Part shown: positions 9,058 to 58,393 of the stretch, one piece after another | How positions within the stretch are numbered: the stretch's first letter is position 1 | Layout: each line of letters begins with the position of its first letter | NCBI GenBank assembly: GCA_963817895.1 | Contig: CAWFQB010000001.1 | Location: forward strand, 1,408,001-1,472,000 | DNA length: 64,000 bases | Source: an uncultured Chthonomonadaceae bacterium | GTDB taxonomy: Bacteria; Armatimonadota; Chthonomonadetes; Chthonomonadales; Chthonomonadaceae | Reading direction: 5' to 3' | Program-made: the position numbers and the translations under genes | Notes under the pieces: generated by a model | What the model saw: the letters and a program-made list of their open reading frames with translations, nothing else | Told to the model about the DNA's origin: nothing | The model's database searches: none

Positions 9058-9140
9058 TAACAACCTGACAACTTAACAACCTGACAACTTAACAACCTGA
9101 CAACTTAACAACCTGACAACTTAACAACCTGACAACCTAA
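9058..9140. repeat. Tandem repeat, 5 x 16 bp TAACAACCTGACAACT (two related 8-mers)
   Basis: Read directly; ends 4 bp before the LysR ATG; no spacers. Confidence 0.95.
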
Positions 9141-9144
9141 TCTC

Positions 9145-10038
9145 ATGGAACTGTATCAACTGGAAACCTTTGAAGCGATTGTGGCGCATGGCAGTTTTAC
9201 CCGCGCGGCAGAGTTTTTGTGCCTGAGTCAGCCTGCGGTGACGCGGCAAATCGCCGGATTGGAAGCGGAATTAAAAATGCCGCTGTTTGATCGGTTGGGC
9301 CGGACGGTGCAAATGACTTCGGCAGGGGAGGCGCTGCATCGCTACGCGGAAACAATAGTGCGTTTGTCGCAGGAAGCGCGGCAGGCGGTGGCGGATGTGG
9401 GAACCGGCAACGCGGGGCGCGTGAGCGTGGGCGCGAGCAACACGCTGGCAACGTATGTCCTCCCGCCCCTGTTGCGGCAGTTCCGGCAAACGCGCCCGCG
9501 CGTAGAGATTGCCATACAAACCGGGGCTTCAGCGCAAATTCTGGAATTGGTACGTTCGGGAGAAGCCGATATTGGATTGGTAACGGGCGAGAACCATGAT
9601 CCGCTTCTGCTGACAACGTTTCTCGCGGAGTATGAGACTCGCGTCGTCGTTCCTGTCGGGCATCCGCTTGCCCGATTGACAACAGTTCGCGCATCGCAGT
9701 TGGAGGGCAGTCCCCTGATTTTAATGGAATCGGGAACCAACCTGCGCGCGTATGTGGATAAATTGCTGAACGAGGCAGGCGTGGAAGAGCAGGTTGCGCT
9801 GGAACTCGATAACGTGGAAGCCATCAAGCGGATGATTGAAGCGGAGTTGGGCATCTCCCTCCTGCCGGAAGTGGCCGTGCGCCGGGAAGTGACAACAGGG
9901 CGGCTTGTAGCCCTGAAACTGACGGATGTGCCTCGCGCCAGGCGTCAAATCGCCCTCGTGCATCGCCGCGACAAATACCTCTCCGTCGCCCTGAAAGCGT
10001 TTATGGAACTGCTGGAAAAAGTGAAGAGTGGAGAGTGA
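9145..10038 (+). CDS. LysR family transcriptional regulator, divergent from acnA
   Basis: N-terminal GSFTRAAEFLCLSQPAVTRQIAGLE HTH and LysR substrate-binding domain. Confidence 0.95.
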   Translation: MELYQLETFEAIVAHGSFTRAAEFLCLSQPAVTRQIAGLEAELKMPLFDRLGRTVQMTSAGEALHRYAETIVRLSQEARQAVADVGTGNAGRVSVGASNTLATYVLPPLLRQFRQTRPRVEIAIQTGASAQILELVRSGEADIGLVTGENHDPLLLTTFLAEYETRVVVPVGHPLARLTTVRASQLEGSPLILMESGTNLRAYVDKLLNEAGVEEQVALELDNVEAIKRMIEAELGISLLPEVAVRREVTTGRLVALKLTDVPRARRQIALVHRRDKYLSVALKAFMELLEKVKSGE

Positions 10039-10205
10039 GAGGCGTGGCTGGTGGTTGGTGGTTGGGCTGCTGCAAAGCGAACGCGGTCAGGCGCTTCCCG
10101 CGCGGCAAGCGTTGGAAGAATTCGGGCGGCGGCATGGCCTACTTCGTTGACATGGCGCAGGTAGCGCTAAAAACACGCAGGGTACTCTTGCCCGAATAAA
10201 ACAAT

Positions 10206-16366: not shown

Positions 16367-16368
16367 TA

Positions 16369-19401: not shown

Positions 19402-19809
19402 TTGATGATTGAGCCGGGAATGGTGCGCAGCATTTCGGAATTGGCGCTATGGGTGCAGGATTTGGAACGCGCTGTCGCCTTTTATGTAGACAATTTGGGC
19501 TTTACGGTAGAGTCGCAGGATATAGGACGCAACGCCTTTTTGAAAAGCGGCGACTTTCTGCTCGTCCTCTTCGTGCCGGACGATCCGGGTACGCCCCTTG
19601 CCCGCGAATATCTGGCGCGGGTCGGCGAACCGCACGGCCATGTGTATCATGTCGCGTTTCGCGTCACGCCGGAAGCATTGGACGCCGCCGGCAAGTCCCT
19701 GCGCATTAAAGGATTAGACGTTTCCGGCCCCGTCGAGTTCGGAACCGGCAGACGCTCGTACTTTCTGGAAGACCCCGATCAGCACTACATCGAACTGACC
19801 GACAGATAG
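19402..19809 (+). CDS. VOC/glyoxalase family protein
   Basis: LWVQDLERAVAFY, HVAFRV and SYFLEDPDQHYIEL motifs. Confidence 0.9.
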   Translation: MMIEPGMVRSISELALWVQDLERAVAFYVDNLGFTVESQDIGRNAFLKSGDFLLVLFVPDDPGTPLAREYLARVGEPHGHVYHVAFRVTPEALDAAGKSLRIKGLDVSGPVEFGTGRRSYFLEDPDQHYIELTDR

Positions 19810-19883
19810 GAAGAAGAGGAGAAAAGGAGAGGGGGAGCTAAGAAACTGCGAATTCGTTTTTCTCCTTTTCTCCTCTTCTTCCT
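19809..19883. terminator. Purine-arm/pyrimidine-arm inverted repeat between convergent genes, probably a bidirectional terminator
   Basis: GGAAGAAGAGGAGAAAAGGAGA pairs with TCTCCTTTTCTCCTCTTCTTCC. Confidence 0.7.
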
Positions 19884-20641
19884 CAAAGCGGCGCGACCCA
19901 GACGTTGCGGAACTGAACGGGATCGTGGTCGCCCTGCAGCACAAGGGGGCCGGTTTTGGTCATTTCCTTGTACACTTCGTAGTTGATGCCCGTCATGCCG
20001 GTGAATTCCTCGTTGTTCTGCACCAGAACGCCGTTGAGAAACACGGTCGCGCGGGGTTTTTTCGTCACCTTGTTGTCGCTGTCGAAGCGGGGAGCGCGGA
20101 AAATGATGTCATAAGCGTTCCATTCGCCCGCCGGTTTGCAGCTATACGCGAGGGGCGCTTTCTGCCCGTACAACGCGCCGCATCCGTGCGCCTCCGGCTT
20201 TTGTCCGTAGGAGTTGAATATCTGTATCTCGTAGCGGCCCTGCAAACCCACCCCGCTGTTGCCGCCGCCCATCGGCTTGCCATTGGCGTCCAACATGATG
20301 CGGAACTCGGCGTGAACGTAACTGTCCCCGAACTCCTGCCGGCTCGTAATATCCACTTTCTGCGGCGTCGCCACGCCCTTATCATCTACCGTCCACGTCG
20401 CCGGGTCGGTGGAACGCCGCTTGTACCAGTTCGCTGTCATATCGTCGGACTTGCTCCCAAGCAGCACAACGGCTCCTTTGGGCGGACGCGCCGATAGCGC
20501 AAACATGGTCATTGCGGGCGTGGCTGTACCCGGTTCTTGCCTGCCGAGCGCAATGGCGCACAGGCGCGGAGTTATCATTGTCGCCGCGCTCCCACAAATC
20601 AAGGCCAGCGCTGCCGCGCGCTTTCCGTTTATCCTCTGCAT
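19883..20641 (-). CDS. DUF1080 (3-keto-disaccharide hydrolase) family secreted protein
   Basis: GNSGV, YEIQI, GEWNAYDI and LQGDHDPVQFRNVWV motifs; signal peptide. Confidence 0.9.
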   Translation of the reverse strand: MQRINGKRAAALALICGSAATMITPRLCAIALGRQEPGTATPAMTMFALSARPPKGAVVLLGSKSDDMTANWYKRRSTDPATWTVDDKGVATPQKVDITSRQEFGDSYVHAEFRIMLDANGKPMGGGNSGVGLQGRYEIQIFNSYGQKPEAHGCGALYGQKAPLAYSCKPAGEWNAYDIIFRAPRFDSDNKVTKKPRATVFLNGVLVQNNEEFTGMTGINYEVYKEMTKTGPLVLQGDHDPVQFRNVWVAPL

Positions 20642-34107: not shown

Positions 34108-34140
34108 CTTACCCCTTACCCCTTACCCCTTATCCCTTAA
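34108..34140. repeat. Heptamer repeat (CTTACCC)x3-4 before the DUF47 RBS
   Basis: Read directly. Confidence 0.9.
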
Positions 34141-41176: not shown

Positions 41177-41429
41177 CCCGACGACTCTCCTGTTTCGGTT
41201 CTTTTCCCATTCTATCAATATACCGGCAAATTTCGCGTATTTTCTTTGCAAAAAGAGGAACATGTGGGCGCGGCATACAATCATACCGAAATAATCTGAC
41301 AGACATTACTGACCGATGATATAGTCAGCGATTCTTGAGCGCGTACTATAATTTACCCTACCTCAAGCGCAGCAGGTTTGTAGTCAATTAGGCATATATG
41401 CCGTTAGATTGGAGAGTGGAGAGTACGTG

Positions 41430-42846: not shown

Positions 42847-42938
42847 TTCGTTTGGCTATTATATATTCGCGTTCGCTTTGTTCCTCAACCCTTAACTCAC
42901 AATTCTCAACCCTCAACCTTTTTGGGTACAATGGAGTT

Positions 42939-45739
42939 ATGAACAGAAGGTACCAATCTTTGTCTTTGCTTGCGGGCTTTCCGCTGGCCTGTGCCGCTTC
43001 CTGCGCAATGGCGCAATCCTCCGCTTTGCCGCAGGCAGAAAAGCCGGTGGGCAAGCCGTTGCCGCATCGCGTGTTCGCTTCCAGCCGTATCAATATAGAT
43101 AAGGTTCTCGCCCGCCCGTATGATTCGGAAGTGCCGTTCGGCGCGTCCGGGGAAGTTGTGTGGGCCACCAGTCCGCAGGGATGGGCGTTTCGGGATGGCG
43201 TTCACCTGCTGTACATCAGCGACAAAGATACTGCCGGACTATTCGACCTGACCATACGCGGCGGCGACAACAATTATGTCGTGGACAAAGCCGAGTACAC
43301 GCCGAGCCATGTTCACCTTACCGGCGCGCCCGGCAGCCTTCTGACCGCCTCCGCCTCGTTCACCCACCATCACCGACAAAGTGGACAATCCACTTTCCAA
43401 ACCCTTCACGCCGGAAAAACGCTGGACATGCTGGAACAGCAAACACCGAACCGATACTTACACGGTTGACTTCGGCAAACCGCGCGCCCTTACCGGCATT
43501 GACCTGTACTTTTTCTCCGATGTAGAGCAGGGCGGCGGATGCGCGCGCCCTGCCGGCGTCGAAGTGGAATTATGGCGCGACAACGCCTGGCAAAAACTCG
43601 TTTACACGCTTCCGCGCAGTGGCATGCCCTGGGATCACCCTGGCGTCACACATTTCAATTTTTACGGTGGCCCGCATACGGGCGAACGCATCCGCTTCAC
43701 CTTTCAGAATCGCGGAACCAATCTGTATACGGGGTTATATGGCGTGGAACCGGCGTTTGCAAAGGGAAAAGGGAAAAGGGAGAGAAGATACGGATACGAG
43801 ATACGAGATACGAGAAGGAGAGGATTCATCCTTCATCCTTCATCCTTCATCCTTATCCATCGTTGCTGACAAATGGATTACGGACGACGATGTTCTGGTA
43901 ACGCGGCTGACGGCTCGTAATTCAGACGCGTGTCGCGCAGCCCTTTTCTGTCCGGATGGATTCGCCTCTGAGTGGAACGCTGCGGGGGTTTGCCGATCAG
44001 CGCGACATGATGGGGCTATCCGCTGTTTCTGGCGGCATGCGGGAACGGATGGCAAAACGCGGGACACGCGCTTTGTGACCGACATCGGGCCGGGAGAAAC
44101 CCACGCTTATACGTTTGCCTGCGGCGTGGGGCATACACAGGCAGAACCGACCAAAAGTTAAAAGCCGCGCTTGCCCTTTCCGACCCGCTTGAAAGCGCAG
44201 CAGGCGGCGTATCAGAATTGGTTCGACGCCAATACCGCCCATTTCGCCTGCTCCGACCCCCTCGTATCCAAAATGTACGCCCATCGCTGGTACAACGTCA
44301 AAAAGAACAGCATGAACCCGCGAATGGGACGGCTGACGCATCGCGCGTTTGCCGAAGGGCGGTGGACATCGGACTGGTACGCCAACATTATCTCATACGG
44401 CGCGGGGCATCAGATTGACGAGGCGCGCTGGCTGCGCGATCCCTCCTACGCCTGGGGGCCGGTTCAGACGTGGACCGAAAACCCGCGCCCGGACGGCGTT
44501 TTTCCGTCCCACATTTCGCCCAAAGGACAGGAGGGCGGGCAGTATACGGACTGGATAGGTTCGACCGCATGGGACGCGTATCTGGTTCACCCGGATAAAA
44601 CGCTGTTGAGCGCGGTTGCCGACCCGGTTGCCCGCAACGCCGAAGCCTGGCGCAAAGTCTATGGCTGCGAACGACAGCCCCCTGCTTGTGGTGGACAGCC
44701 ACTGGTGGACGGGCATGGAGTGGCAGCCGAGTTTCTTCGCGTTTGCGGATTATAAAACGGGCGGCGGAGGGGGCGAAGACCGCAAGTACATGACGCCACT
44801 GCGCCGCGTGGATTTGACCGCTTACAATTATGCCAACGCGCGGAACGCCGCCCATATTTACCGCGAACTGAACCGGACGCGGGACGCGCTGCGACTGCAA
44901 ACACTGGCCGACACGACGCGCGACGCATTGCTGACGCAGATGTGGGACCCGCAAACCCACTGGTTCCACTCCCTGCGGGCAAGCGACAATGCTCCTGCGC
45001 CCACAAAAGAGATCATCGGCCTGTACCCGTTCACGTTCGATATGCCGCACAAAGGGCAAAGGGTACGAAGCCGCGTGGAACGTCGCGCTCGATCCGAAAC
45101 AGTTCTGGACGGCCTGGCCCCTCGCCTCCGTTTCCAAAGACTGCCCCGCGTATGCGCAGAACGGCTGGCCGGTCGGGCCGGGCGGAAGCATCTGCATGTG
45201 GAACGGCCCCTCCTGGCCCCACGCGAACAGCCTGGTTATGACCGCGATGGCGAACACGCTGCGGCACTACGATACAAGCGCGCTGCCCCGGCAAAAACTG
45301 CTCGATCTGTTCCTCTCGTTTACCCGCGTTCAGTACAAAGGCCAGAATGTAATGTATCCCTGGACGGGCGAGTTTTACAATGGCGATACGGGCGAGTGGA
45401 AAACCACTCAGCGCGATTACAACCATTCGACGTGGATAGACCCGCTGATTCGGCATCTGCTCGGACTGGTTCCGCGCAATGACGACATTCTGGAAATTGA
45501 TCCCCTGTTGCCTCCGGGCGCGTGGCCGTACTATGTGCTGGACGGGCAGGCATACCGGGGACACGACATCACGCTGGCCTGGGATACACAGGGCGGACAT
45601 ATTGCGCCCGGCTTTACAGGCTACGGGGTGTATCTGGACGGCAAAGAAATCTATCACAATTCGCAGCCGACGCATGTACTTTACGATATGGCGCGGGACA
45701 GGCGGATTCGCGCGTTCCACAACGGGGCAGGGGCAATGA
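42939..45739 (+). CDS. Secreted MGH1/GH63-like (alpha/alpha)6 glycoside hydrolase with discoidin-like module, multiple frameshifts
   Basis: Signal peptide, TVDFGKPR, WWTGME, WNGPSWP, EFYNGDTG and DYNHST motifs. Fragments lie in successive frames; probable true stop is TGA 45737-45739, overlapping the rimI ATG. Confidence 0.75.
43761..43858. repeat. Composite heptamer repeat block within the hydrolase gene
   Basis: (AAAGGGA)n and (GATACGA)n, then (TTCATCC)x4. Confidence 0.9.
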
Positions 45740-46332
45740 CGATTCCCGGCGAACCGGCACAAACGGTTTCCATTGAGCCGATGCGCCATACGGATATGGA
45801 AACTGTCGCGCGAATTGACCGGCGCTGCTTCCCCTCCCCCTGGCTGCCCACGTCCTACCTGACCGAGCTTTCCAACCGGGCGGCCTGCTATCTGGTGGCG
45901 CGGATGGGGAATGAAGTGGTCGCGTATGCGGGCGAGTGGGTATTGGTCAAGGAGGCGCACATCACCACGCTGGCGGTAGACCCCGCGCATCAGGGACGCA
46001 GAATCGGCGAACGCCTGCTGATCGCGATGCTGGAAGAGGCGATACTGCGGGGCGCGTCCCATGTCACGCTGGAAGTGCGCGAAGGCAACCGGGCGGCGCA
46101 GCGCCTGTACTGCAAATACGGTTTTCGCAACGTCGCGATCCGCAAAAACTACTATACCGACAACGGCGAAAACGCCCTCGTGATGTGGGCCGAAGAGATC
46201 AACACCAACGATTACGCCCTGCGCCTGCGCCAACAGCGCGAACAGGTGTATGAAGCCTGCCCGCGCTGTGCCGATAATTTCCCCGCGCTTCCCACAGTTT
46301 GTCAATACAGGGGTATAATTAGAGCGTCATAG
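45736..46332 (+). CDS. rimI: Ribosomal protein S18-alanine N-acetyltransferase RimI
   Basis: EAHITTLAV, GRRIG, TLEVREGN and RKNYYTDNGENALVMW motifs. Confidence 0.9.
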   Translation: MTIPGEPAQTVSIEPMRHTDMETVARIDRRCFPSPWLPTSYLTELSNRAACYLVARMGNEVVAYAGEWVLVKEAHITTLAVDPAHQGRRIGERLLIAMLEEAILRGASHVTLEVREGNRAAQRLYCKYGFRNVAIRKNYYTDNGENALVMWAEEINTNDYALRLRQQREQVYEACPRCADNFPALPTVCQYRGIIRAS

Positions 46333-46408
46333 TGTACGGGCATTGAGCAGAAGCGTTGTGATAAACGTTTTAATACTTAATGCTGAACGCTTTCTAAAGT
46401 TATACCCG

Positions 46409-49154
<2,746 letters not shown>

Positions 49155-49158
<4 letters not shown>

Positions 49159-49180
49159 CATACTACCGATAATATGTCAA
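49155..49180 (+). promoter_or_regulatory. Palindromic operator/promoter TTGACATA-N10-TATGTCAA
   Basis: Perfect 8-bp inverted repeat containing a consensus -35, upstream of the 49266 ORF. Confidence 0.6.
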
Positions 49181-49265
49181 GATAAATATACACGCTTGCT
49201 TCGCGATTTGATTTGTGCAGTCCTAAACGAGTTTGCGCTTGCTGATGTTCAAGGAGGACATAACT

Positions 49266-50021
49266 GTGAGCAATTCTGATATACCTGATGTAGAAGAAGA
49301 CACTGGAGAACCCTCAATAGAGGACCCGGGTATCTTCGATCCCATTTGTAAGCCCATAGGTTTTGCTTTTTCACCAATCATGGATACGGCGGAAGCAGCC
49401 GTCAGGAACGCTGTGGGCCAGCAAGTAATTACTGACCAGACTCTCATCGGCCTGGTATCTCTTGCCGGTAAAGCTGTTGTTGATTGTCCCATCAAGATCA
49501 CCAGCACCGACAAAACCGTTATTCTGCCGCAGCCAACGGTTACCATTCCATGGGGATATACAACGGCGCGCGTTTACGCTATTTACCGCTCAACGACTCC
49601 CACTCCCTTGACAGCCATAAATATCAATGCGGAAAACGAATATGGACGCCTGACCGCGAAAATTGTGCTGCCCGTAGACCACCTTCGCGCGCCCGGTATT
49701 TTGGCAATAGATAGCAGGCAAGTGAGGGAAATCTCTTTTCCTCCTCAAATTCGAGTTGGCGCAAGCGCGACAGGACATGTAAAAATAGATGCGCCTGCGC
49801 CCCTGAATGGAACAGTCGTCAAGTTGATTGTCAACGACGACGACGCCACCTCCATCCAATTGCCGCCGGGAGGAATTGTCACCGTTCCTCATAACTGCGA
49901 TACTGCCGATGTACCCATTACCATCCTGTCCGTTCCGCCTTCTGAGCCACTGATTGTGGACGCGCGCACTCTAGACCATGAAGACAGCGTGCCGTCCAAC
50001 CCCATCATGGTATATCCGTAA
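49266..50021 (+). CDS. Hypothetical protein with two Ig-like beta-rich repeats
   Basis: AAGGAGG RBS plus GTG; repeated pattern GxVx(L/I)…VT(I/V)P…TA; no signal peptide. Confidence 0.7.
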   Translation: MSNSDIPDVEEDTGEPSIEDPGIFDPICKPIGFAFSPIMDTAEAAVRNAVGQQVITDQTLIGLVSLAGKAVVDCPIKITSTDKTVILPQPTVTIPWGYTTARVYAIYRSTTPTPLTAININAENEYGRLTAKIVLPVDHLRAPGILAIDSRQVREISFPPQIRVGASATGHVKIDAPAPLNGTVVKLIVNDDDATSIQLPPGGIVTVPHNCDTADVPITILSVPPSEPLIVDARTLDHEDSVPSNPIMVYP

Positions 50022-50031
50022 GGCTGGCTTA

Positions 50032-50086
50032 CCTCACCCCACCCCCTCTCCTAGTCGCGCAACGCGCTAGGAGAGGGGCTTTTTGT
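50032..50086 (+). terminator. REP-like hairpin / rho-independent terminator
   Basis: CCCCTCTCCTAG…CTAGGAGAGGGG followed by a T tract. Confidence 0.75.
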
Positions 50087-50210
50087 TTATCCACTATCCT
50101 GACCGCCTATTCATCTGAACATGTTCAAGCACAGCAAACGTGTTTCCTTGCGTCAGGGAGGGCTTTTATGTGTGGTAATGGAACAAAATAGTTCCGTGCT
50201 ATAATAGGGT

Positions 50211-51224
50211 ATGAACGTACTTGGAGTGGAAACCAGTTGTGATGAGACTTCGGCGGCCATTGTAACCGATGGCCGCCGGGTTTGCGCCAATATCATCGCG
50301 AGTCAGGCCGATTTACACGCGCGATATGGCGGCGTCGTGCCGGAAGTGGCGTCGCGCAAGCATGTGGAGCGGATGCTGCCCGTCGCGCAGGAGGCTCTGG
50401 ACGCGGCGGGCATGACGTATGCCGACATTGATGCGCTTGCCGTGACCAATCGCCCCGGACTGCTCGGCGCGCTGCTTGTCGGCGTGTCGTTTGTGAAAGC
50501 GCTGAGTTACGCCCGCAACATTCCGCTTGTCGGCGTTCACCATCTGGAGGGACACGTTTATTCCAACTTCCTCGCCGCCCCCGATCTGATTGACTCGCCC
50601 GACGCCTTTCCCCTGCTTGTGCTGATCGTATCCGGCGGGCATACGCAGATTGTCCGCATGGATGGACACGGACAATACGCCCTGCTTGGCGCGACGCGCG
50701 ACGATGCCGCCGGGGAAGCCTTCGACAAGGGGGCCAGACTGCTCGGCCTGCCTTATCCGGGCGGCCCCAACATTGCCCGCCTTGCCGAAGAGGGCGACCC
50801 GAAGCGAATCGCGTTTCCCCGCTCGTGGATGGGCGACAGTCTGGATTTCAGTTTCAGCGGCGTGAAAACCGCCCTGCGCTCGTTTGTCGCCAAAGATGCG
50901 GGCCAAACGGCTTTGCCCGATGTCGCGGCCAGTTATCAGGCGGCGATTGTGGATGTTCTGGTGGAGAAAATGCGGCGGGCGGCACGGCGAACGGGCGTTC
51001 ATACCCTTTGCGTGGCGGGCGGCGTGGCGGCGAACCGGAGCTTGCAGGCAGGATTGCAGGCGATGGCGGAGGGGGAAGGCTTGCGTCTGGTCGCGCCCGA
51101 ACCCGTCCTTTGCACCGACAACGCGGCCATGATCGCGGCGGCGGGCTATTTCCGCATCACGCGACACGGCCCGGACACCCTCGCGCTGGACACGTATGCC
51201 TCCGAAGCGCTTACGGGAAGGTAG
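50211..51224 (+). CDS. tsaD: tRNA threonylcarbamoyltransferase TsaD
   Basis: ETSCDET, GGVVPEVASRKH, HHLEGH, VSGGHT, DDAAGEAFDK and CTDNAAMI motifs. Confidence 0.97.
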   Translation: MNVLGVETSCDETSAAIVTDGRRVCANIIASQADLHARYGGVVPEVASRKHVERMLPVAQEALDAAGMTYADIDALAVTNRPGLLGALLVGVSFVKALSYARNIPLVGVHHLEGHVYSNFLAAPDLIDSPDAFPLLVLIVSGGHTQIVRMDGHGQYALLGATRDDAAGEAFDKGARLLGLPYPGGPNIARLAEEGDPKRIAFPRSWMGDSLDFSFSGVKTALRSFVAKDAGQTALPDVAASYQAAIVDVLVEKMRRAARRTGVHTLCVAGGVAANRSLQAGLQAMAEGEGLRLVAPEPVLCTDNAAMIAAAGYFRITRHGPDTLALDTYASEALTGR

Positions 51225-51240
51225 ATGGGTAGATGGGTAG
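51220..51240. repeat. (GGTAGATG)n octamer arm containing the tsaD stop
   Basis: Read directly; inverted relative to 51619-51647. Confidence 0.85.
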
Positions 51241-51250
51241 CCGTACTATG

Positions 51251-51607
51251 CTACTGTGACGCTAACATGGCTTTCATGTAAGCATCCAACATTCGGCTGA
51301 CGCTGTTGAGAGACTCGTGCAATGTTTGCGTGTCGCCGTAGCCCAGATCACGCGAAAGTATCAGATAGTAGCGACACTCTTCCAATGAACCCTGAGCGAT
51401 GTTGTAAAAACGCGCTTTATCGGCTTTGCCAGCGCGCTTGAAGTCTTCGGCAATGTTGGCCGGTATGGAAACGGCGGCGCGGCGCAGTTGAGAGGTGAGG
51501 CCGTACAACTCGTGTTTAGGAAAGTCTGCTGTGAGAGTATACACTTGAAGAACGCAGGAGTGTGCCAGTTGCCATACTTCCAGACGCTCAAAAGTCGCTG
51601 ATGCCAT
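51251..51607 (-). CDS. Four-helix-bundle protein (23S rRNA IVP / Avd-like fold)
   Basis: FERLEVWQ, FPKHELYGLTSQLRRAAVSIPANIAE and IAQGSLEE motifs. Confidence 0.93.
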   Translation of the reverse strand: MASATFERLEVWQLAHSCVLQVYTLTADFPKHELYGLTSQLRRAAVSIPANIAEDFKRAGKADKARFYNIAQGSLEECRYYLILSRDLGYGDTQTLHESLNSVSRMLDAYMKAMLASQ

Positions 51608-51618
51608 AGTTCCTCCTG

Positions 51619-51647
51619 CTACCTATCTACCCACCTACCTATCTACC
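51619..51647. repeat. (CTACCTAT)n octamer arm containing the receiver-gene stop
   Basis: Reverse complement GGTAGATAGGTAGGTGGGTAGATAGGTAG. Confidence 0.85.
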
Positions 51648-52032
51648 TTGCCAGGATTTCGCGGATACGCTCGGCAAGGACGCTCATGCGGAAGGGTTTG
51701 CGGATGATTTCCACGACGTTGGGCGTCAGTCCCAAATCTTCCGCGTCCAGGTCGTGTCCGGTGGCGATCAGGACGGGAACATCGGGCAGACGGGCGTGGA
51801 ATTCGCGGGCGACCGTCACGCCGTTCATTCCCGCCATAGACATGTCGGTGATAATCAGGTCAATGCGCAGGCCGAGTTCGGCGGCAAGCAAATCCAGCGC
51901 CTCCTGCCCGCTGTGCGCCACATGTACCTGAAATCGGCGATTGGTCATGGCCTGCTGAAACAGGTCTGTAATCATGGGTTCGTCATCAATAATCAGCAGG
52001 GTTGGGGTCTCGGTCGGCGGCTGAGTGTCCAT
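51643..52032 (-). CDS. Single-domain response regulator (receiver)
   Basis: IIDDE, ITDMSM, ATG and KPF motifs. Confidence 0.9.
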   Translation of the reverse strand: MDTQPPTETPTLLIIDDEPMITDLFQQAMTNRRFQVHVAHSGQEALDLLAAELGLRIDLIITDMSMAGMNGVTVAREFHARLPDVPVLIATGHDLDAEDLGLTPNVVEIIRKPFRMSVLAERIREILAR

Positions 52033-52313
52033 GCGTTTCTCCCGAACTGCAAGCGTTGCGTCAAAGGTGACGCCGGATGGAGTGAGGCTGCGCCCGCAAC
52101 AATGTTATTTGCGCGTCAGGGGCGGGTGGCACAAGATCGCATCGTAGAATCTACATCGGGGTACATTCAGCCTGCATTTCGCGCTTGTGCCGGAAAATTC
52201 CTGCGCGTCAGCAAAATATTCTGAAGTTGCGATAATTAGCCCTGTACGACAAACGCGCCCTCGCCTGTAAAGGTAAGGACGCGGAGCATCAGGTACGGTG
52301 CAAAAGCCGTATT

Positions 52314-52634
52314 CTACAAAATTTCTATTGGATAGGTGGTCATCCAAATGTCAATTTGCTGGAACCGGGCTTTCACACGTTCCTTAAACATCAGGAAGAA
52401 TTGGCGGCTTTCAGGAACGTCCGAAGTGTCTACGAACACTCGAATCAGTTCATCGCGGAAGAGTTCATCCTCGTGACGCCACAGGCCGCGAATGATTTGG
52501 GTTTCGGATGAGACAGCGCCGAAGCGTTCTTCCAATTCGAGCAGGGTTTCAGCAATCAACTCGTTCGGCACGGGCTGCCCGTCGTTAAACCTTCGCGGCA
52601 GGAGGAGTTCGTACCGCCGAAATGAGGCGTTCAT
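52314..52634 (-). CDS. Hypothetical protein with a PII/ferredoxin-like pattern
   Basis: RYELLLPRRFNDG…GLW…RDE…KARFQQ; overlapped by the upstream small ORF. Confidence 0.7.
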   Translation of the reverse strand: MNASFRRYELLLPRRFNDGQPVPNELIAETLLELEERFGAVSSETQIIRGLWRHEDELFRDELIRVFVDTSDVPESRQFFLMFKERVKARFQQIDIWMTTYPIEIL

Positions 52635-52806
52635 AGGTAGCCTGCCCCTCAACGGAGAAAGGAATGTTCTCCGTCGCTAAATACGCCAATGCTGTTTCCG
52701 GCACTGCCATTTCCCCGTTTGCCCAACTTTTGAATGAGAAACGGCCCGCCAAAAAGCCCAGAGCGCGACGCTTAGAGTCGGCGTCGGGAAAGCGAATAAG
52801 TATCAT
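52585..52806 (-). CDS. Small hypothetical protein, upstream partner
   Basis: 73 aa with a GAGGA RBS; 50-bp overlap with the downstream gene. Confidence 0.6.
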   Translation of the reverse strand: MILIRFPDADSKRRALGFLAGRFSFKSWANGEMAVPETALAYLATENIPFSVEGQATYERLISAVRTPPAAKV

Positions 52807-52953
52807 CAGTATATCCTCTACAGGCTCAAAAGAACAATGGGCGCGACACAAGACAATAAACAAATGCGCAGGGTGACAGCCTTTTCCGTTAGTTTTCTTC
52901 TCTTATATTATACCCGATGGCAAACGCCTGAAACGGCAGCCATATAAATTAGA

Positions 52954-53646
52954 TTACGCCTTTGTTTTTAAGGAGCGAACGACTTCTGAAATAATTCGAG
53001 CGTATTCGTTGTAGTCAGGGTAAGCAGGGTGTTTTATGGACTGGATCAGCAAACTATCGGAATGTCGGTAACGATTGCGAAAGCGCAGCGGAGGAGTTAG
53101 CCGCCACATGGCGTTAAATGCGGCTAATCCCGGTTCCCCGGACACGAATATCACATGCGGGTCCAATGCGACCATCTCCACGCGTATAAAGTCAGCAGTT
53201 GTACTCGTCCCGCTTGCAGTAATGCTCTTGGCATCCTGCTTCTTGTTAGGATTTGAGGTCGGCCGGATGTTGTAGTAAGCGACCTTCTTGACAACAGATT
53301 CCAGTCCCTTCCTATCTTTGTAGGCCATTTTCAAATTGGAGGGGCTTGGAATTGCTCCGTCTACATACGCATCAATGAGAGTTCGAACAAGCGCAAACGT
53401 GTAACGAACAGTTCTCGTTCCTGTATTCCCACTATCATACATCCATTCAAGGAGACAGTCAAAGTCAACGTCAACAAAGCCGGATTTATCATATCCGTAT
53501 GATTCCATGTTGACAGCGAGTACCCGTAATGGAGCATTCCAGTAGTCGTCTGCGGCAGGAGCGTGGAACATGTGATGTTCGCAACCGATATCTTGAAGAT
53601 GTTGGCGAGTTTGCTGTTTCGAGAACGTGTAATCTTGCTTTGACAT
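52954..53646 (-). CDS. Hypothetical protein, possibly uracil-DNA-glycosylase-like fold
   Basis: LDPHVIFVSG and IKHPAY patterns; AT-richer than the backbone. Confidence 0.55.
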   Translation of the reverse strand: MSKQDYTFSKQQTRQHLQDIGCEHHMFHAPAADDYWNAPLRVLAVNMESYGYDKSGFVDVDFDCLLEWMYDSGNTGTRTVRYTFALVRTLIDAYVDGAIPSPSNLKMAYKDRKGLESVVKKVAYYNIRPTSNPNKKQDAKSITASGTSTTADFIRVEMVALDPHVIFVSGEPGLAAFNAMWRLTPPLRFRNRYRHSDSLLIQSIKHPAYPDYNEYARIISEVVRSLKTKA

Positions 53647-53766
53647 AGGAAATATAAAAGACCTAACTGCTGACTTTACCAGCATAGAATTTTAACTTGG
53701 CACAGCCCGTCGGTTCCTGCCGGAAATTGTTCGCCTGAGTAACATGAGTAACCAAGACGAATTAAT

Positions 53767-54240
53767 TTAATCTTCCATCAAGTCAAGGAACTCTTGAGGA
53801 TCGGAAATTGTCCAAAGCGCATGTCCCCTCCCGCCGCACTTCGAAGAGATTGTATAACGTGGAAGCTTGTGTTTCCATTTTACTTGTCGCAGATGAGGGG
53901 CTTTTGCAAATGTGCTGGGGTCATACCTGTAACAGCCATTTACAGTCCCAATGTAGACCATAGATGTGTCGTCATCTTCATAAACGACAATATCGACACA
54001 TTGCATAACATGGCGGAAGCGATATAAATGACCAGCGCCCTGTTCGATTCGATGTTGGGCAATTTTCGGATGCGTATCCGTCAAGTGTTCCTTGATTGCC
54101 TTCTGATTTGCAGGGAGTTGTGACAGATCGCCTACATCCGGCCAGCCTATACATATCTCTTGTTGCTCCTTGAAAAGACTACCAGCGTCGAAATGCTCAC
54201 CGCCCGCCCGTATTCCCCAAACTCTTCGATTTGCTTCCAT
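53767..54240 (-). CDS. Stand-alone N-terminal domain of an Mrr-like restriction protein
   Basis: WGIRAG, IGWPDVGDL, DIVV…IGTV…Y…R.VKW pattern; no nuclease domain follows. Confidence 0.65.
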   Translation of the reverse strand: MEANRRVWGIRAGGEHFDAGSLFKEQQEICIGWPDVGDLSQLPANQKAIKEHLTDTHPKIAQHRIEQGAGHLYRFRHVMQCVDIVVYEDDDTSMVYIGTVNGCYRYDPSTFAKAPHLRQVKWKHKLPRYTISSKCGGRGHALWTISDPQEFLDLMED

Positions 54241-54354
54241 AGCAGATGCTTCTCCTCGCCATTACTTCGTCCGACAAGCCTGCTTCGGCTTCTTTTACAA
54301 CCATACAGAGATTTGCTTGCTACACATCATTATAACGGTGTCACTGCCTCAATT

Positions 54355-55510
54355 GAGGCAGTGACATAAATGTATGTGCCATTAGTTGTCAGTATGCCTC
54401 CGGGTTGGCTTACGCCGCGCGCAGAAAAGCTTTCAAGCCAAGGCGCAGGCTCAAGTTGTGTTCAAAACGGTACAACAACGCCAGTTGATAGACGAAGATC
54501 GCGCCTAGCGCAAAGCGCTTCGTAGCGACCAAGCCTTTGGTCGGCACTTGGTCATGGGCGTCAAAGATGCCCTTGAACTGCTCGTTGAAGTTTTCGATAG
54601 CGAGCGAACGCAGTTTATGGAAGATACGCCGGACTTCCTTGCCGCCTTCGGGGTGCGGATACTTCCCCCGCTGCGTTGCCACGAGGGTACAACTACGTAA
54701 CTGACAACATTCGTCTACATTGGGCGCATTATAATGCTGATCGCCCAGAGCAAAGGCGGGCATCGTCGGCACTTCGGGCAACAACAAGGTAATGTGTTCG
54801 TTGTCGGCGACATTAGCGGGCGTCACATCGGCGGCTAAAGGGATCCAGATCGAAGCGACCGTACAAATCAGGTGCAGTTTCCAGCCATACACCCACCCGT
54901 GCCAGCCCGATTTGGTCCAATGAGCCTCGGTGTCAATGCGCGTATGCGGCACAACTCCCGCCTCTCGATCTTTCTTGTGCCACACGCCGCCCTTGGCGCG
55001 CAGCAGGGTGCTGTCCATCGCAAATGCTCGGCTGATGGCTGCCCAGGGTTGCAAGCGGTCTACCAAGTGACGGCCAGGCAGCCAATCTGGGCAGGCAAGG
55101 TGTCGGGCAAAGTTGCCAGGCGTCTGACGAAACGTCCGTTCACACGGATACTTGTCGTTTTCTGTCAGTAAGGCGCGTAATGTCTGCATTTCCTGTGTGG
55201 GTTCTTGCAGGACGGCCAGGAGTTCGCCCACTTTGAACAAGTGTCGCACAATCATAATGACGAGTGCCTGCAAAAACAGCCGATCCGGGTAGACCTTGGC
55301 GCGTCCGCGTCCCCGCTTTTTCGGCGCTTGGGGCGGGTGGGGCAAGCGGTCAACCAGTTTGACAAGGGTGACGAGTAAGGTTTCTTGCGGTATCATACAA
55401 TTGCCTCCGTGTTAAGAGTGTCGCAACTGTATAATACGGTAGGTGAACCGCGTCATGCGCAAACAGCGCAAACTGTCAAAACATGGCGCGGTTATTTATG
55501 TCTTCGCCTC
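54355..55510 (-). mobile_element. Insertion sequence with about 45-bp imperfect TIRs and an AATT duplication
   Basis: GAGGCAGTGACATAAAT…GCCAT…TGTCAGT versus GAGGCGAAGACATAAAT…GCCAT…TGACAGT; AATT at 54351-54354 and 55511-55514. Confidence 0.85.
54410..55396 (-). CDS. DDE transposase (IS4/IS5/IS982-like)
   Basis: AMDST, GWVYGWKLH, LGDQHY and IENFN motifs; apparent compensating frameshift pair at about 55075-55130. Confidence 0.88.
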   Translation of the reverse strand: MIPQETLLVTLVKLVDRLPHPPQAPKKRGRGRAKVYPDRLFLQALVIMIVRHLFKVGELLAVLQEPTQEMQTLRALLTENDKYPCERTFRQTPGNFARHLACPDWLPGRHLVDRLQPWAAISRAFAMDSTLLRAKGGVWHKKDREAGVVPHTRIDTEAHWTKSGWHGWVYGWKLHLICTVASIWIPLAADVTPANVADNEHITLLLPEVPTMPAFALGDQHYNAPNVDECCQLRSCTLVATQRGKYPHPEGGKEVRRIFHKLRSLAIENFNEQFKGIFDAHDQVPTKGLVATKRFALGAIFVYQLALLYRFEHNLSLRLGLKAFLRAA

Positions 55511-55709
55511 AATTAAGTCAATGTCAGTTCAGCAAAAGTGATCCTCCTTCCGAACAACAATGCGCCGCCCGACGCTATTTAACCTGCTATAATACATCAT
55601 TACACGCCTACCTGCCGTTGTCCTTTTATGCGACACCAGCTAATAACCGAGTGTGAGCGGCGTCTATTCTGTATATTCCTCTGCCTGTCGAATTTTTGTG
55701 AGATCAGCT

Positions 55710-56195
55710 ATGCCCAATAAACTTACCCTGCATGTCAATGGGACTGCCCGCGCTGTGGAAGCCGACCCGGAACAGAGCCTTCTCAGCGTTCTGCGCGACG
55801 GTTTGGACCTGACCGGAAGCCACTACGGATGCGGCGAAGGCCAGTGCGGAGCCTGCACCGTGCTGATTAACGGCGAACCGACGCGCTCGTGCATCACCCC
55901 TGTCGGAACGGTCGCTTCCAAACCCGTTGTCACTATAGAAGGACTGGAAATCGGGGACAAACTGCACCCGGTTCAGCAGGCGTTTCTCGACTGCGACGCC
56001 CTGCAATGCGGCTACTGCACCTCCGGCATGATTATGTCGGCTGTGGGCCTGCTGCGCAAAAACCCCGCGCCCACGGAGCAGGACATCATCAAGGGGATGA
56101 ACGGTAACGTCTGTCGTTGCGGCACGTACCGCCGCATTGTCCGCGCCGTCCACGCCGCTTCGCAGTCGCAGGCGCAGCATAAGGAGGCGAAATGA
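55710..56195 (+). CDS. (2Fe-2S) small subunit, CoxS/IorA family
   Basis: GCGEGQCGACTV, QCGYCTSG and GNVCRCGTY motifs. Confidence 0.95.
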   Translation: MPNKLTLHVNGTARAVEADPEQSLLSVLRDGLDLTGSHYGCGEGQCGACTVLINGEPTRSCITPVGTVASKPVVTIEGLEIGDKLHPVQQAFLDCDALQCGYCTSGMIMSAVGLLRKNPAPTEQDIIKGMNGNVCRCGTYRRIVRAVHAASQSQAQHKEAK

Positions 56196-58393
56196 CTACT
56201 CTCAAAAACAGACAGGGAGACAGGGAGACAGGGAGACAGGGAGAAGAGGAGAATTCATTCCTCATCCTTCATCCCTCATCCTTGCCTACCCGCCGCGACC
56301 TGTTCCGGCTGCTGGGCGCGGGGGTGCTGATGCTCGTCGCGCTGCCGGAGATGGCGGACGCGCAGGAATCGGTGAGCGGGGGCGGCAGAAGGCGCGGCGG
56401 CAACGCCATGCCGCAGAACATCGGCGCGTGGCTGCATATTGACGCGAACGGCGCGGTCACGGTGTATACCGGCAAAACGGAGGTGGGGCAGAATATCCGC
56501 ACATCGCTGGCGCAGGCGGTTGCCGAGGAATTGCGCGTCCCCTTCGCGTCCATTCAGATCGTGATGGCAGATACCGCTTTGACGCCTTATGACGCCGGCA
56601 CGTTCGGCAGCCGCACCACGCCCAACATGTCGCCGCAGTTGCGCATCGCCGCCGCCAATGCCCGCGAAGTATTGCTTGATCTGGCCGCTGCGCAATGGCA
56701 GGTCGAGCGCAATACGATTACGATGAAAAACGGCAAAGCCCTTCACGCGGCCACGCAACGGACATTGACGTATGGCGAACTGTGCAAGGGGCAAAAGCTG
56801 ACGCAAACCCTCAACCCCAATGTCGCGCTGACTCCTGCCGCGCAATGGAAGATCATGGGAACATCCGCGCCCAAAGCGGACGGACGCGCGTTTGTTACGG
56901 GAAGGCATCAGTACACGTCCGACATGAAGCGCGAGGGGATGCTGATCGGCAAAATTCTGCGCCCCGCCGCCTTTCACGCCCCGCTGAAATCTGTGGACGC
57001 GGCAGGGGCGAAAGCCATGAGCGGCGTGACAGTTGTACAGGATGGCGATTTTGTTGGCGTTACGGCTCCGAACGCGCAGATTGCCAATCGCGCCCTTGCC
57101 GCCCTGAAAGCCGAATGGCAGACGGTTCCGCAGCCGTCGGGACAAACGCTGTTCGAGCAGTTGCGCCCCCATTCCACACAGGCAAAGGCGGAGGGGAACA
57201 AGCCCCGGCTCGCGCAGGACGCGCCCAGACTCGCGCAGGATGTACAGAAACCGGAAATTGGCGCGGACGGGCATACGATCAAGGCTTCCTATACCATCGC
57301 GTATATTGCTCATGCGCCCCTCGAACCCCGCGCCGCGCTTGCGGAATGGCAGGGCGACCATTTGACTGTGTGGACGGGAACGCAGAGTCCCTTCGGCGTT
57401 CGGAGCGAACTGGCCGCTTTCTTCCATCTGCCCGAAGAGCAGATTCGCGTGATTGTGCCGGATACGGGGTCGGGGTACGGCGGCAAGCACAAGGGAGACG
57501 CGGCATTGGAAGCGGCGCGATTGTCTCGCGCGGCAGGCAAGCCCGTGAAACTGGTATGGACGCGGGAAGAGGAGTTTACGTGGGCGTACTTTCGACCTGC
57601 GGGCGTGATTGACATTACAGCAACGGTTCAGCCGGATGGAACCCTGACGCATTGGGAACACGATAATTACAATTCCGGCCCGTCCGGTATTCGCGCGCCC
57701 TACGATGTGCCGGGACAACGGACGGAATTTCATCGCGCTCAGGCTCCGTTACGCGAAGGCTCATATCGCGGACTGGCCGCCACCGCCAACCATTTCGCCC
57801 GCGAATTGCACGTTGACGATTTGGCTCATGCCGTGAAACTGGACCCACTCGCGTTTCGCTTGAAGAATCTGAAGGACGAGCGGATGCGGGGCGTGTTACA
57901 GGCCGCCGCCACGCGCTTCGGGTGGGACAAACGCAAACCCGCGCCCGGAAGGGGGTTCGGGCTGGCCTGCGGCTCGGAAAAAGGCAGTTACGTGGCGACG
58001 TGCGTGGAACTGATGACAGACAAGGCAAGCGGCAGGGTACAACTGACGCGCATTGTCACGGCTTTCGAGTGTGGCGCGATTGTCAACCCTACCCATTTGC
58101 AAAATCAGGTGGAGGGGGCGGTTGTGCAGGGGATTGGCGGCGCGCTGTTCGAGGCGATTCACTTTGAGGACGGCAAAATCGTCAATCCGCATTTCGCGCA
58201 GTACCGCCTGCCCCGCTTCGCAGATGTGCCGCCCATAGACATTGCGCTGGTAAACCGCAAAGACCTGCCTTCCGAGGGCGCGGGCGAAACGCCTATCGTT
58301 GCCATCGCCCCGGCCATTCGCAACGCCCTCTTTGACGCGACAGGGCAGAAACTCGTTTCTATGCCCATGATCCCGAATGGCTTGAAGGCTTAA
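56192..58393 (+). CDS. Molybdopterin-binding subunit, IorB/xanthine dehydrogenase family (Tat signal)
   Basis: TRRDLF, EVGQNIRT, HAPLEP, GSGYGGK, NQVEGAVVQG and GAGE motifs. Confidence 0.93.
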   Translation: MTTLKNRQGDRETGRQGEEENSFLILHPSSLPTRRDLFRLLGAGVLMLVALPEMADAQESVSGGGRRRGGNAMPQNIGAWLHIDANGAVTVYTGKTEVGQNIRTSLAQAVAEELRVPFASIQIVMADTALTPYDAGTFGSRTTPNMSPQLRIAAANAREVLLDLAAAQWQVERNTITMKNGKALHAATQRTLTYGELCKGQKLTQTLNPNVALTPAAQWKIMGTSAPKADGRAFVTGRHQYTSDMKREGMLIGKILRPAAFHAPLKSVDAAGAKAMSGVTVVQDGDFVGVTAPNAQIANRALAALKAEWQTVPQPSGQTLFEQLRPHSTQAKAEGNKPRLAQDAPRLAQDVQKPEIGADGHTIKASYTIAYIAHAPLEPRAALAEWQGDHLTVWTGTQSPFGVRSELAAFFHLPEEQIRVIVPDTGSGYGGKHKGDAALEAARLSRAAGKPVKLVWTREEEFTWAYFRPAGVIDITATVQPDGTLTHWEHDNYNSGPSGIRAPYDVPGQRTEFHRAQAPLREGSYRGLAATANHFARELHVDDLAHAVKLDPLAFRLKNLKDERMRGVLQAAATRFGWDKRKPAPGRGFGLACGSEKGSYVATCVELMTDKASGRVQLTRIVTAFECGAIVNPTHLQNQVEGAVVQGIGGALFEAIHFEDGKIVNPHFAQYRLPRFADVPPIDIALVNRKDLPSEGAGETPIVAIAPAIRNALFDATGQKLVSMPMIPNGLKA
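56209..56283. repeat. Composite repeat (GACAGGGA)x4 then (TCATCCY)n, in frame
   Basis: Translates as RQGDRETGRQGE…FLILHPSS immediately before the Tat motif. Confidence 0.9.

Follow-up and report, generated by a model that had tools for sequence, protein, structure and literature searches.

STRR sequences of cyanobacteria are dispersed tandem heptamer repeats, mostly intergenic and of several unit families. In REPIN-RAYT systems, a partner gene encoding RAYT, an HUH nuclease, is flanked by an inverted repeat, and many gene-less doublets occur without target duplication. In the 23S helix 45 intervening sequence (IVS) that Coxiella burnetii carries, an S23p/PF05635 ORF lies downstream of GACAGAT heptamers (PMC4990558). 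The heptamers GGGAATC in Xanthomonas and GGGGA(C/T)T in Nostoc are intergenic, near the upstream ORF and mostly of four units, with 70 and 75 pairs, respectively, reported to be convergent (PMC4692102, main text). The TAACTGA repeats of Beggiatoaceae have an A/C-rich arm before starts, overlap stops and are in some cases in frame (PMC4679880, main text), and repeat classes switch within a stem in cyanobacterial trnL P6b (PMC4476775). MITEs, including the Rickettsia palindromic elements, are non-autonomous, ~100–150 bp long, with inverted ends, and can lie in frame in unrelated genes (PMC10969869), and DGR Avd is a pentameric, positively charged barrel over which RNA lies (bioRxiv 10.1101/2023.10.23.563531).

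Here we analysed a window of 64,000 nt from an uncultured Chthonomonadaceae bacterium (genome G000), comparing it with an independently assembled congener (G002, 1.47 of ~8.0 Mb covered) and with samples of 20–140 kb from other relatives. The window holds 13 exact 7/8-mer arrays, compared with a mean of 0.12 and a maximum of 1 in 50 shuffles, and every locus named in the original prediction was found at the position given for it (Table 1). Genome-wide there are 1,583 arrays, and ~0 in shuffles; period-7 and period-8 arrays number 769 and 395, where a codon-block shuffle gives 0 and 1. The genome has 185 different units. For a degenerate AG-periodic pattern, the control counts of the scan were high in both G000 and G002, and it does not enter the evidence. 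The arrays are dispersed, mostly intergenic and of several unit families, as in STRR sequences, in a host that is not a cyanobacterium.

Table 1. Repeat elements and the associated gene in the window
Feature	Position	Strand	Context
One-sided second-type (C-rich) arm, alternating 8-mers	9058–9140		Ends 4 nt before LysR start codon
Two stacked first-type arms (AGTGGAG-like, GTGGTTG)	10020–10065		First holds LysR stop codon
One-sided first-type arm, AAGGATG x4 + AA	16278–16307		Holds fmt stop codon 16290–16292
Gene-less hairpin, 8-mer arms	19809–19884		Between convergent glyoxalase and 3-keto-disaccharide hydrolase family genes
8-mer-armed hairpin	30964–31140	-	In frame, N-terminus of ORF 30102–31145
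One-sided second-type arm, CTTACCC x4	34108–34139		Before DUF47/PhoU_div gene start
Non-complementary multi-block composite, two first-type then second-type blocks	40077–40209	-	In frame, PD-(D/E)XK_7 gene 39611–41284
Degenerate one-sided second-type arm (CCTCAAC)	42883–42918		
Non-complementary composite (AAAGGGA, AGATACG, then TTCATCC)	43761–43858	+	Inside a gene
Loaded cassette, inverted GGTAGAT-type arms 51220–51240 and 51619–51648	51220–51648		Around four-helix-bundle gene
Four-helix-bundle gene of PF05635 subfamily A (118 aa)	51251–51607	-	
Non-complementary composite (AGACAGGG x4 + AG, then TTCATCC x4)	56210–56283	+	In frame, N-terminus of molybdopterin oxidoreductase ORF 56192–58393

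The arrays are strongly polarised, as had been predicted from the window. Neighbouring arms within 100 bp run G-rich then C-rich in 359 cases and the reverse in 1 (29 GG, 39 CC, 70 ambiguous), and the 1,131 loci comprise 462 G-C, 4 C-G, 3 mixed and 5 ambiguous ones, with G arms alone at 329 and C arms alone at 328. A single order is kept by 371/371 same-family pairs and, independently of complementarity, by non-complementary pairs (175 versus 1 reversed). The arm and polarity rules are the same in G002. What did not hold is G content as the definition of the first arm, since GATTTTC is a first-arm unit; the arm is defined by the strand of its family. The loci at 9058, 10020, 16278, 34108 and 42885 are one-sided and not composites, and those at 40077, 56210 and 30964 lie within reading frames and not between genes. 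One unit occurs on both sides in 184 of 419 close pairs (25 under random pairing, maximum 39), so that true hairpins are the largest class of pairs. The median element is 102 nt long. For the order of stacked blocks, three nested cases and one parallel case were seen, too small a number to establish a rule.

Arms share one build, in 7-mers as in 8-mers: the unit is repeated in full four times and followed by its own first two bases, giving five AG/AA cores. Lengths of exact arrays peak at 30–31 nt for 7-mers and at 35–36 nt for 8-mers, which indicates that length is counted in units. With unit phases chosen after these peaks were known, exactly four full units were counted in 541 of 979 arms, five in 39 and more in 5. 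In four-unit arms, the next inner slot carries the unit's first base in 85–100% of arms and its second base in 88–100% in 14/15 family sets, and the outer slot is near background. The AGGTTGTT family, which peaks at two units, and the arm at 9058, with ~10 units, are exceptions. A variant unit in one arm of an element has its mirror in the partner arm in 46/100 cases, compared with 13.3 expected. A test of limited power found no divergence gradient from the outer to the inner end of arms, which gives progressive growth at the centre no support.

The positions of the arms relative to genes follow the same polarity. On the sense strand, 415 G-type and 35 C-type arms lie within 25 nt after a stop, and 227 C-type and 19 G-type arms within 25 nt before a start, in agreement with the proposal that G-rich arms at gene 3' ends supply stops and C-rich arms adjoin starts; the stops of LysR (10036–10038), fmt, tsaD (51222–51224) and the receiver gene (51643–51645), the last two in the arms of the loaded cassette, are inside arms. 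The median distance from arm to stop is 3 nt. In roomy spacers, 34/69 arms are within 25 nt of a stop (16% expected), as are 9/9 in convergent ones, and arms are rarer in divergent spacers (12/249 versus 500/4,503 junctions). Of 144 stop-proximal four-unit arms, 29 have a TAG stop whose AG is the first core, and 1 has its first core on a TAA; no neighbouring offset reaches more than a third of this frequency. Furthermore, ~95 elements lie in frame in long ORFs of G000, which hold 45/114 non-pairing and 50/348 pairing loci (p 5e-8), the hairpin label over-calling purine/pyrimidine composites. In-gene arrays are on the more hydrophilic or stop-free strand in 203/265 cases. The in-gene counts rest on gene calls by a hexamer script, some of them false because of chance arrays in GC-rich sequence or wrongly placed starts. 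Relative to G002, 68/609 genes are split in G000 by assembly indel errors, and the gene at 43761 is out of frame across its composite in both assemblies. Contigs from sequencing runs that align to 44001–56100 do not span the loaded cassette. The window's own loci lie outside rRNA; elsewhere in G000, one 23S insert, in what we take to be helix 45 in E. coli numbering, and two 16S inserts form stem-loops of the rRNA intervening-sequence kind, in place of helix-tip tetraloops. Where this 23S helix ends in a tetraloop in G005, G013 and G035, it bears arms instead in G000, G001 and G002, with a different unit in each. A search for an RNase P motif gave no match.

The gene at 51251–51607 matches PF05635 at 121.6 bits (cut-off 33.8), a family for which we know of no catalytic site or activity. 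Its predicted fold has four helices and resembles Xcc0516 (PDB 2GSC, five chains; TM 0.89) and DGR Avd (4DWL; TM 0.79, E 0.06). By analogy with 2GSC, which has 43% identity, the protein is predicted to form a pentameric ring; the title of the 2GSC paper includes "five four-helix bundles" (reference list of PMC10053308). Both PF05635 genes of G000 are enclosed by arms of this type, and among 80 homologues of the window gene, 48 show the layout G-arm, gene, C-arm, 21 have one arm in that order and none is reversed (control windows, 8/345), so that the suggested link between the repeats and a four-helix-bundle gene is real. Arm period and consensus track protein subfamily across phyla: subfamily A has period 7 in 105/108 arms (consensus RG-D-AG-NN), subfamily B period 8 in 93/124, and subfamily C AAGGATG-like arms. 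After dereplication at 80% identity, period 7 is found in 48/51 A and 2/38 B; these sets are not phylogenetically independent, and co-inheritance could produce the tracking. The number of cores beside subfamily-A genes is broadly distributed, with a mode of five reached in 19/76 upstream and 18/76 downstream arms.

Gene and arrays do not always coincide. Many arms are orphans; AAGGATG x3 is present 155 times in G000 and 162 times in G002, and no subfamily-C gene was found at E 1e-25 in these genomes (81% and 91% complete). The unit of 1,042 of the 1,583 G000 arrays is not among the arms beside the four subfamilies sampled. In G005, a PF05635 gene goes with 0 arrays in the 120 kb sampled; in G001, the 140 kb sampled hold 7 arrays, the rRNA inserts are present and PF05635 has no match. 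The genes seen so far with arms on both sides are those of PF05635 and GxxExxY. Loops yielded no fragment of PF05635, and readings of them as mini-ORFs or PF05635 relics were rejected. Two IS-like inserts lie inside loops, and G000 has three Y1_Tnp matches.

Sites turn over between congeners. Of 116 G002 elements mapped to G000, 55 correspond to an element, 27 to arrays only, 19 to empty sites and 15 to other states, and 76/88 mapped G000 elements have arrays in G002. The junction at 32128 of the window is empty in G000 and holds different elements in G001 and G002. In G002, the first arm of the 10020 locus is also present at the LysR end, the 9058 orthologue has no array, the 16278 site carries a different element, the 34108 site a CCTAATG-type arm and the 56210 place other blocks. 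At 40077, there are four other blocks in G002, and G001 is 69 nt shorter with no array; the cassette site at 51220 holds a 130-nt gene-less hairpin of another family in G002, and two other hairpins and another ORF in G001. The loop at 30964 is homologous in G001 and G002 with a different arm unit in each genome, and thus in-place rewriting of arms also occurs. Target-site duplication was not found at 13 sites compared at ~80% genome identity, at which junctions are not resolvable to the base (longest flanking direct repeat 4.5 nt versus 4.75 in the null). At empty orthologous sites, the match to the inserted unit is no closer than that to other units (0.764 versus 0.763, n=13), and the rRNA tetraloops offer no seed. 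Local slippage from a seed is rejected on these sites, and the orthologue comparison, with filled and empty sites, upholds the earlier view that slippage is insufficient.

Some loop features recur between elements. AATGC is at the inner edge of 73/574 loop ends (9.9 expected), and in a loop of G035 too; such loops are open in 31/59 cases, against 56% in shuffles. Several loci have loop ends in common (49 end pairs versus 0 shuffled), and 14/96 composite centres have a near copy (2 shuffled); 327/399 loops are singletons. At orthologous sites, 6/24 loops exceed the 95th percentile of the null, one of them matching better in reverse orientation.

We see about an even chance that the repeats are the arms of gene-less miniature copies of the PF05635 cassette, bound core by core by the ring and copied in repair. 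This explanation draws on the observed arm build, polarity, arms of PF05635 genes, subfamily tracking, site turnover, lack of target duplication and mirrored variants. Against it stand the frequent orphan arms, the mismatch of gene and arrays in G005 and G001, the broad core counts beside subfamily-A genes, the exceptions to four units, the singleton loops free of PF05635 fragments and the rewriting of arms in place. The ring would read the strand of the first arm with one subunit for each AG/AA core, much as TRAP reads its repeats. A broken or nicked end would pair with a donor arm at that arm's outer end and then copy inward, which would give the first-arm-then-second-arm order in every product, on both strands. 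Copying of both ends from one donor would leave a hairpin with mirrored arms, and donor switching the non-complementary composites. We assume the involvement of host recombination functions. Insertions would be retained by selection where they fall on stop codons, at the tips of rRNA helices or in the loops of proteins; within ORFs, selection would favour the stop-free, hydrophilic strand, a filter that would enrich non-complementary pairs there.

The original prediction envisaged a templated activity that extends the two 3' ends of a break with G-rich units before rejoining. Worked out further, a dedicated enzyme would add first-strand units, halt after four rounds and leave the ends to be joined over captured filler. 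A template anchored by AG at each of its ends would indeed give blocks of four units plus AG/AA, and the stacking of single-arm blocks of unrelated families in one orientation, the missing target duplication, the first cores on TAG stops and a reverse transcriptase match in each of G000, G001 and G002 are all consistent with it. However, the mirrored variants argue against independent addition at each end, the arms show no age gradient, loop ends are common to several loci, and 185 units would need as many templates, which existing elements already provide. The suggested co-occurrence with reverse transcriptase and Ku was not seen. G035 (97% complete; 21 arrays in 120 kb, with 6 G-C and 0 C-G pairs) and G039 have arrays but no match in a search for PF00078, beyond which divergent polymerases may exist; the only PF00078 match of G000, on another contig, looks retron-like by motifs and neighbours; and Ku is present in 1/42 family genomes and in none of G000, G001, G002 and G035. 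Repair of breaks by copying from elements already present is a better fit, and we consider the repeat-adding enzyme improbable; of the earlier interpretation, the insufficiency of slippage, the intrinsic polarity and the four-helix-bundle link stand. We are equally sceptical of mutation and selection only, in which slippage, gene conversion of inverted arms and loss of long palindromes would shape the repeats and the four-helix-bundle gene would be a passenger of a tolerant site: this is opposed by the seedless empty sites and tetraloops, the unit-counted cap, whose start and end phases are fixed, the uniform polarity of same-family pairs and the tracking of protein subfamily by period across phyla.

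A regulatory or processing signal, with spread being secondary, is somewhat less doubtful, though still unlikely. The ring would bind first-arm RNA, or RNase III would cut the hairpin, and the host would keep arms at gene junctions to couple, split or stabilise transcripts. The closeness of arms to stops, their rarity in divergent spacers and the reuse of sites between congeners point this way, as do the RNase III cleavage of the Coxiella IVS stem with its GACAGAT heptamers (PMC4990558) and the repeat-binding regulator proposed by MacGregor (PMC4679880). On the other side, junction hairpins show no excess of sense-strand G-U pairs (181 versus 189), the sense preference of the AATGC side is weak (21 versus 11), units turn over and many sites are empty in one congener, and ~95 elements are inside ORFs.

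Returning to miniature cassettes copied in repair, a bolder and more tentative extension is that they form a hitherto undescribed class of selfish elements, in which a pentameric Avd-like ring and a five-core code at both ends, written in a subfamily-specific 7- or 8-base unit, direct insertion and exchange. If so, gene-bearing and gene-less cassettes would move without transposase, reverse transcriptase or target duplication, and would account for the heptamer repeats of bacteria, the intervening sequences in helix 45 of rRNA and a modular supply of peptide loops for ~95 proteins of this genome. The cassette link is a testable lead on the heptamer-repeat excess in bacteria and on PF05635 function; five cores for five subunits, with the match of subfamily to unit, give a binding prediction with built-in negative controls. 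In-frame composites offer a route for continual rewriting of surface loops in many proteins, and the rRNA series links intervening sequences to these elements.

We found no description of the gene-plus-arm system in the literature searched (mostly open journals, main texts; information on polarity may lie in the supplements to PMC4692102 and to PMC4679880). As in MITEs, there are terminal inverted repeats, a short non-coding core and dispersed copies, the composites lacking the inverted repeat; unlike MITEs, the elements show no duplication of the target site and share neither a conserved internal sequence nor one peptide, their ends are made of counted tandem units, and their candidate partner gene is not a transposase. 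REPIN-RAYT systems share the partner gene within an inverted repeat, the gene-less spacer doublets and the absence of target duplication, but PF05635 differs from RAYT in having no known catalytic site. The window protein is like Avd in fold, but Avd works with the DGR reverse transcriptase, and none lies beside the gene or in the window. The Beggiatoaceae and STRR accounts differ in describing direct repeats without a mechanism, and we know of no rule for paired arms or unit counts in them, nor of a link to a gene. The intergenic four-unit convergent arrays resemble those of Xanthomonas and Nostoc, which have one unit per genus and are read as a G-quadruplex motif in PMC4692102, in whose main text "helix bundle" does not occur; here, the four-unit mode and the polarity also hold for AGATACG and AGTTGAT, which are unable to form quadruplexes. 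The Coxiella IVS, as described, likewise has a PF05635 gene within terminal inverted arms with tandem heptamers and a long stem in place of the tetraloop, and the gene-less armed inserts of G000, G001 and G002 occupy the same helix, whereas the copies described here are nearly all outside rRNA, gene-less, built from many units and in part assembled into in-frame composites.

The repeats are real, strictly polarised and counted. All eleven loci named in the original prediction were recovered, as members of a set spread through the genome under study (G000; 7.5 Mb, 57% GC), in which exact arrays number 769 at period 7 and 395 at period 8 (0 and 1 after shuffling) and a lower threshold yields 1,583 arrays of 185 units. 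Judged by its 16S, the host bacterium is probably a member of the Armatimonadota. Neighbouring arms ≤100 bp apart are ordered G-then-C in 359 cases and C-then-G in one, and clustering gives 1,131 loci, 462 G-then-C, 4 C-then-G and 657 one-sided. When the first strand of each family is learned from that family's own inverted pairs, all 371 same-family pairs (37 families; G000 and a 1.47-Mb sample of its congener G002) share one order, and neighbours of different families run first-then-second rather than the reverse by 175 vs 1 in G000 and 25 vs 1 in the G002 sample. The predicted fixed arm order thus holds genome-wide, also for non-complementary arms, and since it is identical when read on either strand, it belongs to the element itself. 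Close pairs in G000 have a common unit in 184/419 cases (25 under random pairing). The predicted placement of G-rich arms at gene 3′ ends and C-rich arms at starts was likewise upheld in G000: arms after stops are first-type in 415 cases and second-type in 35, and arms before starts second-type in 227 and first-type in 19. In the 206 elements that are co-directional, the median distance between first arm and stop is 3 nt, and in 75 of them the arm overlaps the stop codon.

The lengths of exact arrays peak a second time, at 30-31 nt in 7-mers and at 35-36 nt in 8-mers. Across 979 arms in 15 family sets, four complete units are present in 541, five in 39 and a higher number in 5; in four-unit arms the inner slot opens with AG or AA, the two bases with which the unit starts, and the slot on the outer side has no match. 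An arm therefore consists of five such cores and four spacers, regardless of unit. Most window arms keep this count rule, the exceptions being window 9058 (~10 units) and the AGGTTGTT family.

One arm pair in the window encloses a PF05635 four-helix-bundle gene. The model of its protein reaches TM 0.89 against Xcc0516 (2GSC, five chains) and TM 0.79 against the DGR protein Avd. G000 has two PF05635 genes, both with arms around them. Of 80 PF05635 homologues from many phyla, 48 show first arm-gene-second arm, 21 a single arm in that order and none the reverse, the rest having no arm (7), GG (1) or a contig edge (3), which bears out the link between repeats and four-helix-bundle genes that had been put forward for testing. 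Four subfamilies, in sets drawn from different collections and not independent, differ in their arms: A has period 7 in 105/108 arms (consensus RG-D-AG-NN; hosts of 33-71% GC), B period 8 in 93/124, C AAGGATG-like arms and D mixed arms. AAGGATG arms are plentiful in G000 and G002, although no subfamily-C gene was detected in either; a further relative, G005, has a PF05635 gene but 0 dispersed arrays in 120 kb, and the congener G001 has arrays but no PF05635 gene was found there. These mismatches count against strict gene-array dependence.

Orthologous sites show turnover. Mapping of 116 G002 elements onto G000 led to an element in 55 cases, to arrays only in 27, to an empty site in 19 and to other outcomes in 15; of 88 G000 elements mapped onto G002, 76 met arrays and 2 empty sites. 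The unit is common to both genomes at only 6/24 orthologous sites, and loop similarity exceeds the null 95th percentile at 6/24, most loops being unrelated. At the tsaD junction G000 carries the gene-loaded cassette, where G001 and G002 have hairpins that differ. At the window 32128 junction only 4 bases separate start and stop in G000, and each congener has an element of its own there. Furthermore, rRNA tetraloops of three other relatives (G005, G013, G035) correspond to armed hairpins at equivalent tips in G000, G001 and G002, with arms of TAGGGAT, GGGAGTA and AGTAGTC, respectively, at 23S helix 45; two 16S sites and one more 23S tip show like replacement, some empty in one congener. Neither a seed of the inserted unit at empty sites nor a target duplication at filled sites was found (n=13).

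Two-sided loci lie inside long ORFs in 95/462 cases in G000, with non-pairing composites enriched (45/114 vs 50/348 pairing loci). A complementary pair in an ORF would force one arm to be hydrophobic or stop-containing. Non-pairing composites read as modular peptides of charged blocks (e.g., EKEKRRKGE, IRDTRYEIRE) followed by polar blocks (e.g., SSFILHPSS, STLNSQLST, TTNHQPP). In-gene strand use is one-sided per family, with AGAAAAGG on its first strand in 59 cases and on the other in 2, and GGTGGTT on its second strand in 16 and on the other in 0, and the stop-free or more hydrophilic strand is used in 203/265 in-gene cases. Blocks at the same position in orthologous proteins are often unlike between G000 and G002; 611 orthologous pairs, in counts that include some false calls, have arrays in both (20), G002 only (22) or G000 only (14).

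Variant units are mirrored in partner arms (46/100 vs 13.3), different loci have loop ends in common (49 end pairs vs 0 shuffled; 43/49 on one side only), an AATGC motif lies at one inner edge of loops, and some composite centres recur among loci. Together, these observations fit copying from existing donors. The mirrored variants also speak against the originally proposed templated addition of repeats to both 3′ ends of a break. As far as profile searches show, the arrays need neither a reverse transcriptase nor Ku; a dedicated repeat-adding enzyme appears quite improbable, and the repeats do not count as evidence for an enzyme of the telomerase type. A regulatory role is unlikely, the junction hairpins having no RNA-level wobble bias, and we hold out little prospect for mutation and selection alone. 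On this evidence we prefer, at about even chances, the reading that gene-less elements would be derivatives of the PF05635 cassette: five-core arms would be read by a pentamer, and elements would spread through donor-templated repair, new ones being copied from elements already present, with switches from one donor to another. That the arms are bound, that a cut starts the process and that the protein takes part in spread are inferences.

A parallel system surrounds the GxxExxY (PDDEXK_3) genes of G000, 4/4 of which have 9/10-mer arms with the polarity of the 7/8-mer arms. Gene-less versions comprise 89 pairs in six patterns, all in a single order (0 reversed), and hairpins of these arm families are common and nested within 7/8-mer elements. 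The nuclease-fold GxxExxY protein is a candidate for the missing cutter.

Further features are listed in the table. The CUA tRNA-like gene is possibly an amber suppressor carried as cargo; no PylS scored above cut-off in G000. G000 has a single PF00078 reverse transcriptase, which looks retron-like from its motifs and neighbours. G000 has three Y1_Tnp matches. The MGH1-like gene lies across three frames, and comparison with G002 shows 68/609 genes to be split in G000, probably through long-read indel errors in the assembly.

Coordinates of armed elements, cargo and neighbouring features
Feature	Location	Details
PF05635 cassette	window 51220/51619	gene enclosed by arm pair
In-ORF loci	window 40077, 56210, 30964	
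Composite	window 43761	out of frame in both assemblies (G000, G002)
Glycoside-hydrolase (MGH1-like) gene	window 44171-46332	
GxxExxY genes	G000:C1:43915-44295, C3:444817-445164, C6:254455-254859, C8:26422-26760	inverted arms, ~three units
Lone first-type arm in tsaD	G001 L075 near 8208	in frame, GAGGAGAC x4; absent from G000 tsaD
Enlarged rRNA, G001 and G002	L189-L192, L197, L198	16S 1,686-1,704 nt, 23S 2,980-3,224 nt; several hairpin inserts; two G001 23S copies unlike at one insert
tRNA-like gene, CUA anticodon	G000:C11:90455-90640	ARAGORN label Pyl; within GGTGTTC/GAACACC arms
PF00078 reverse transcriptase	L123:1288-3625 (G000:C6)	adjoins SWIM/BRCT-like ORF
Two-ORF IS-like inserts	G000:C2:121358-122596, C3:364015-365389	in armed-element loops
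Gene pair, presumably XisH/XisI-like	G000 C1:1582398-1583420	between ACACAGAG arms
GTAG-type REP-like palindromes	e.g. G002 L108 region (C44:114232)	nested in armed-element loops
~15 tRNA genes	G000:C4:228025-230044	arrayed on one strand

STRR, TRAP and REPIN-RAYT are known systems for comparison. Published accounts describe convergent GGGAATC pairs with four units in Xanthomonas (PMC4692102), TAACTGA repeats at starts, stops and within ORFs (PMC4679880), a Coxiella helix-45 IVS that contains a PF05635 ORF and has heptamers in its arm (PMC4990558), shifts of repeat class in trnL P6b (PMC4476775), in-frame Rickettsia palindromes (PMC10969869), the homology of PF05635 to Avd (PMC10053308) and a pentameric Avd (bioRxiv 10.1101/2023.10.23.563531). 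Parts of the system are thus published, but literature searches found no description of gene and arms as one system, of the count rule or of a match between unit and subfamily. The elements amount to a form of non-autonomous inverted-repeat element that has a tie to PF05635.
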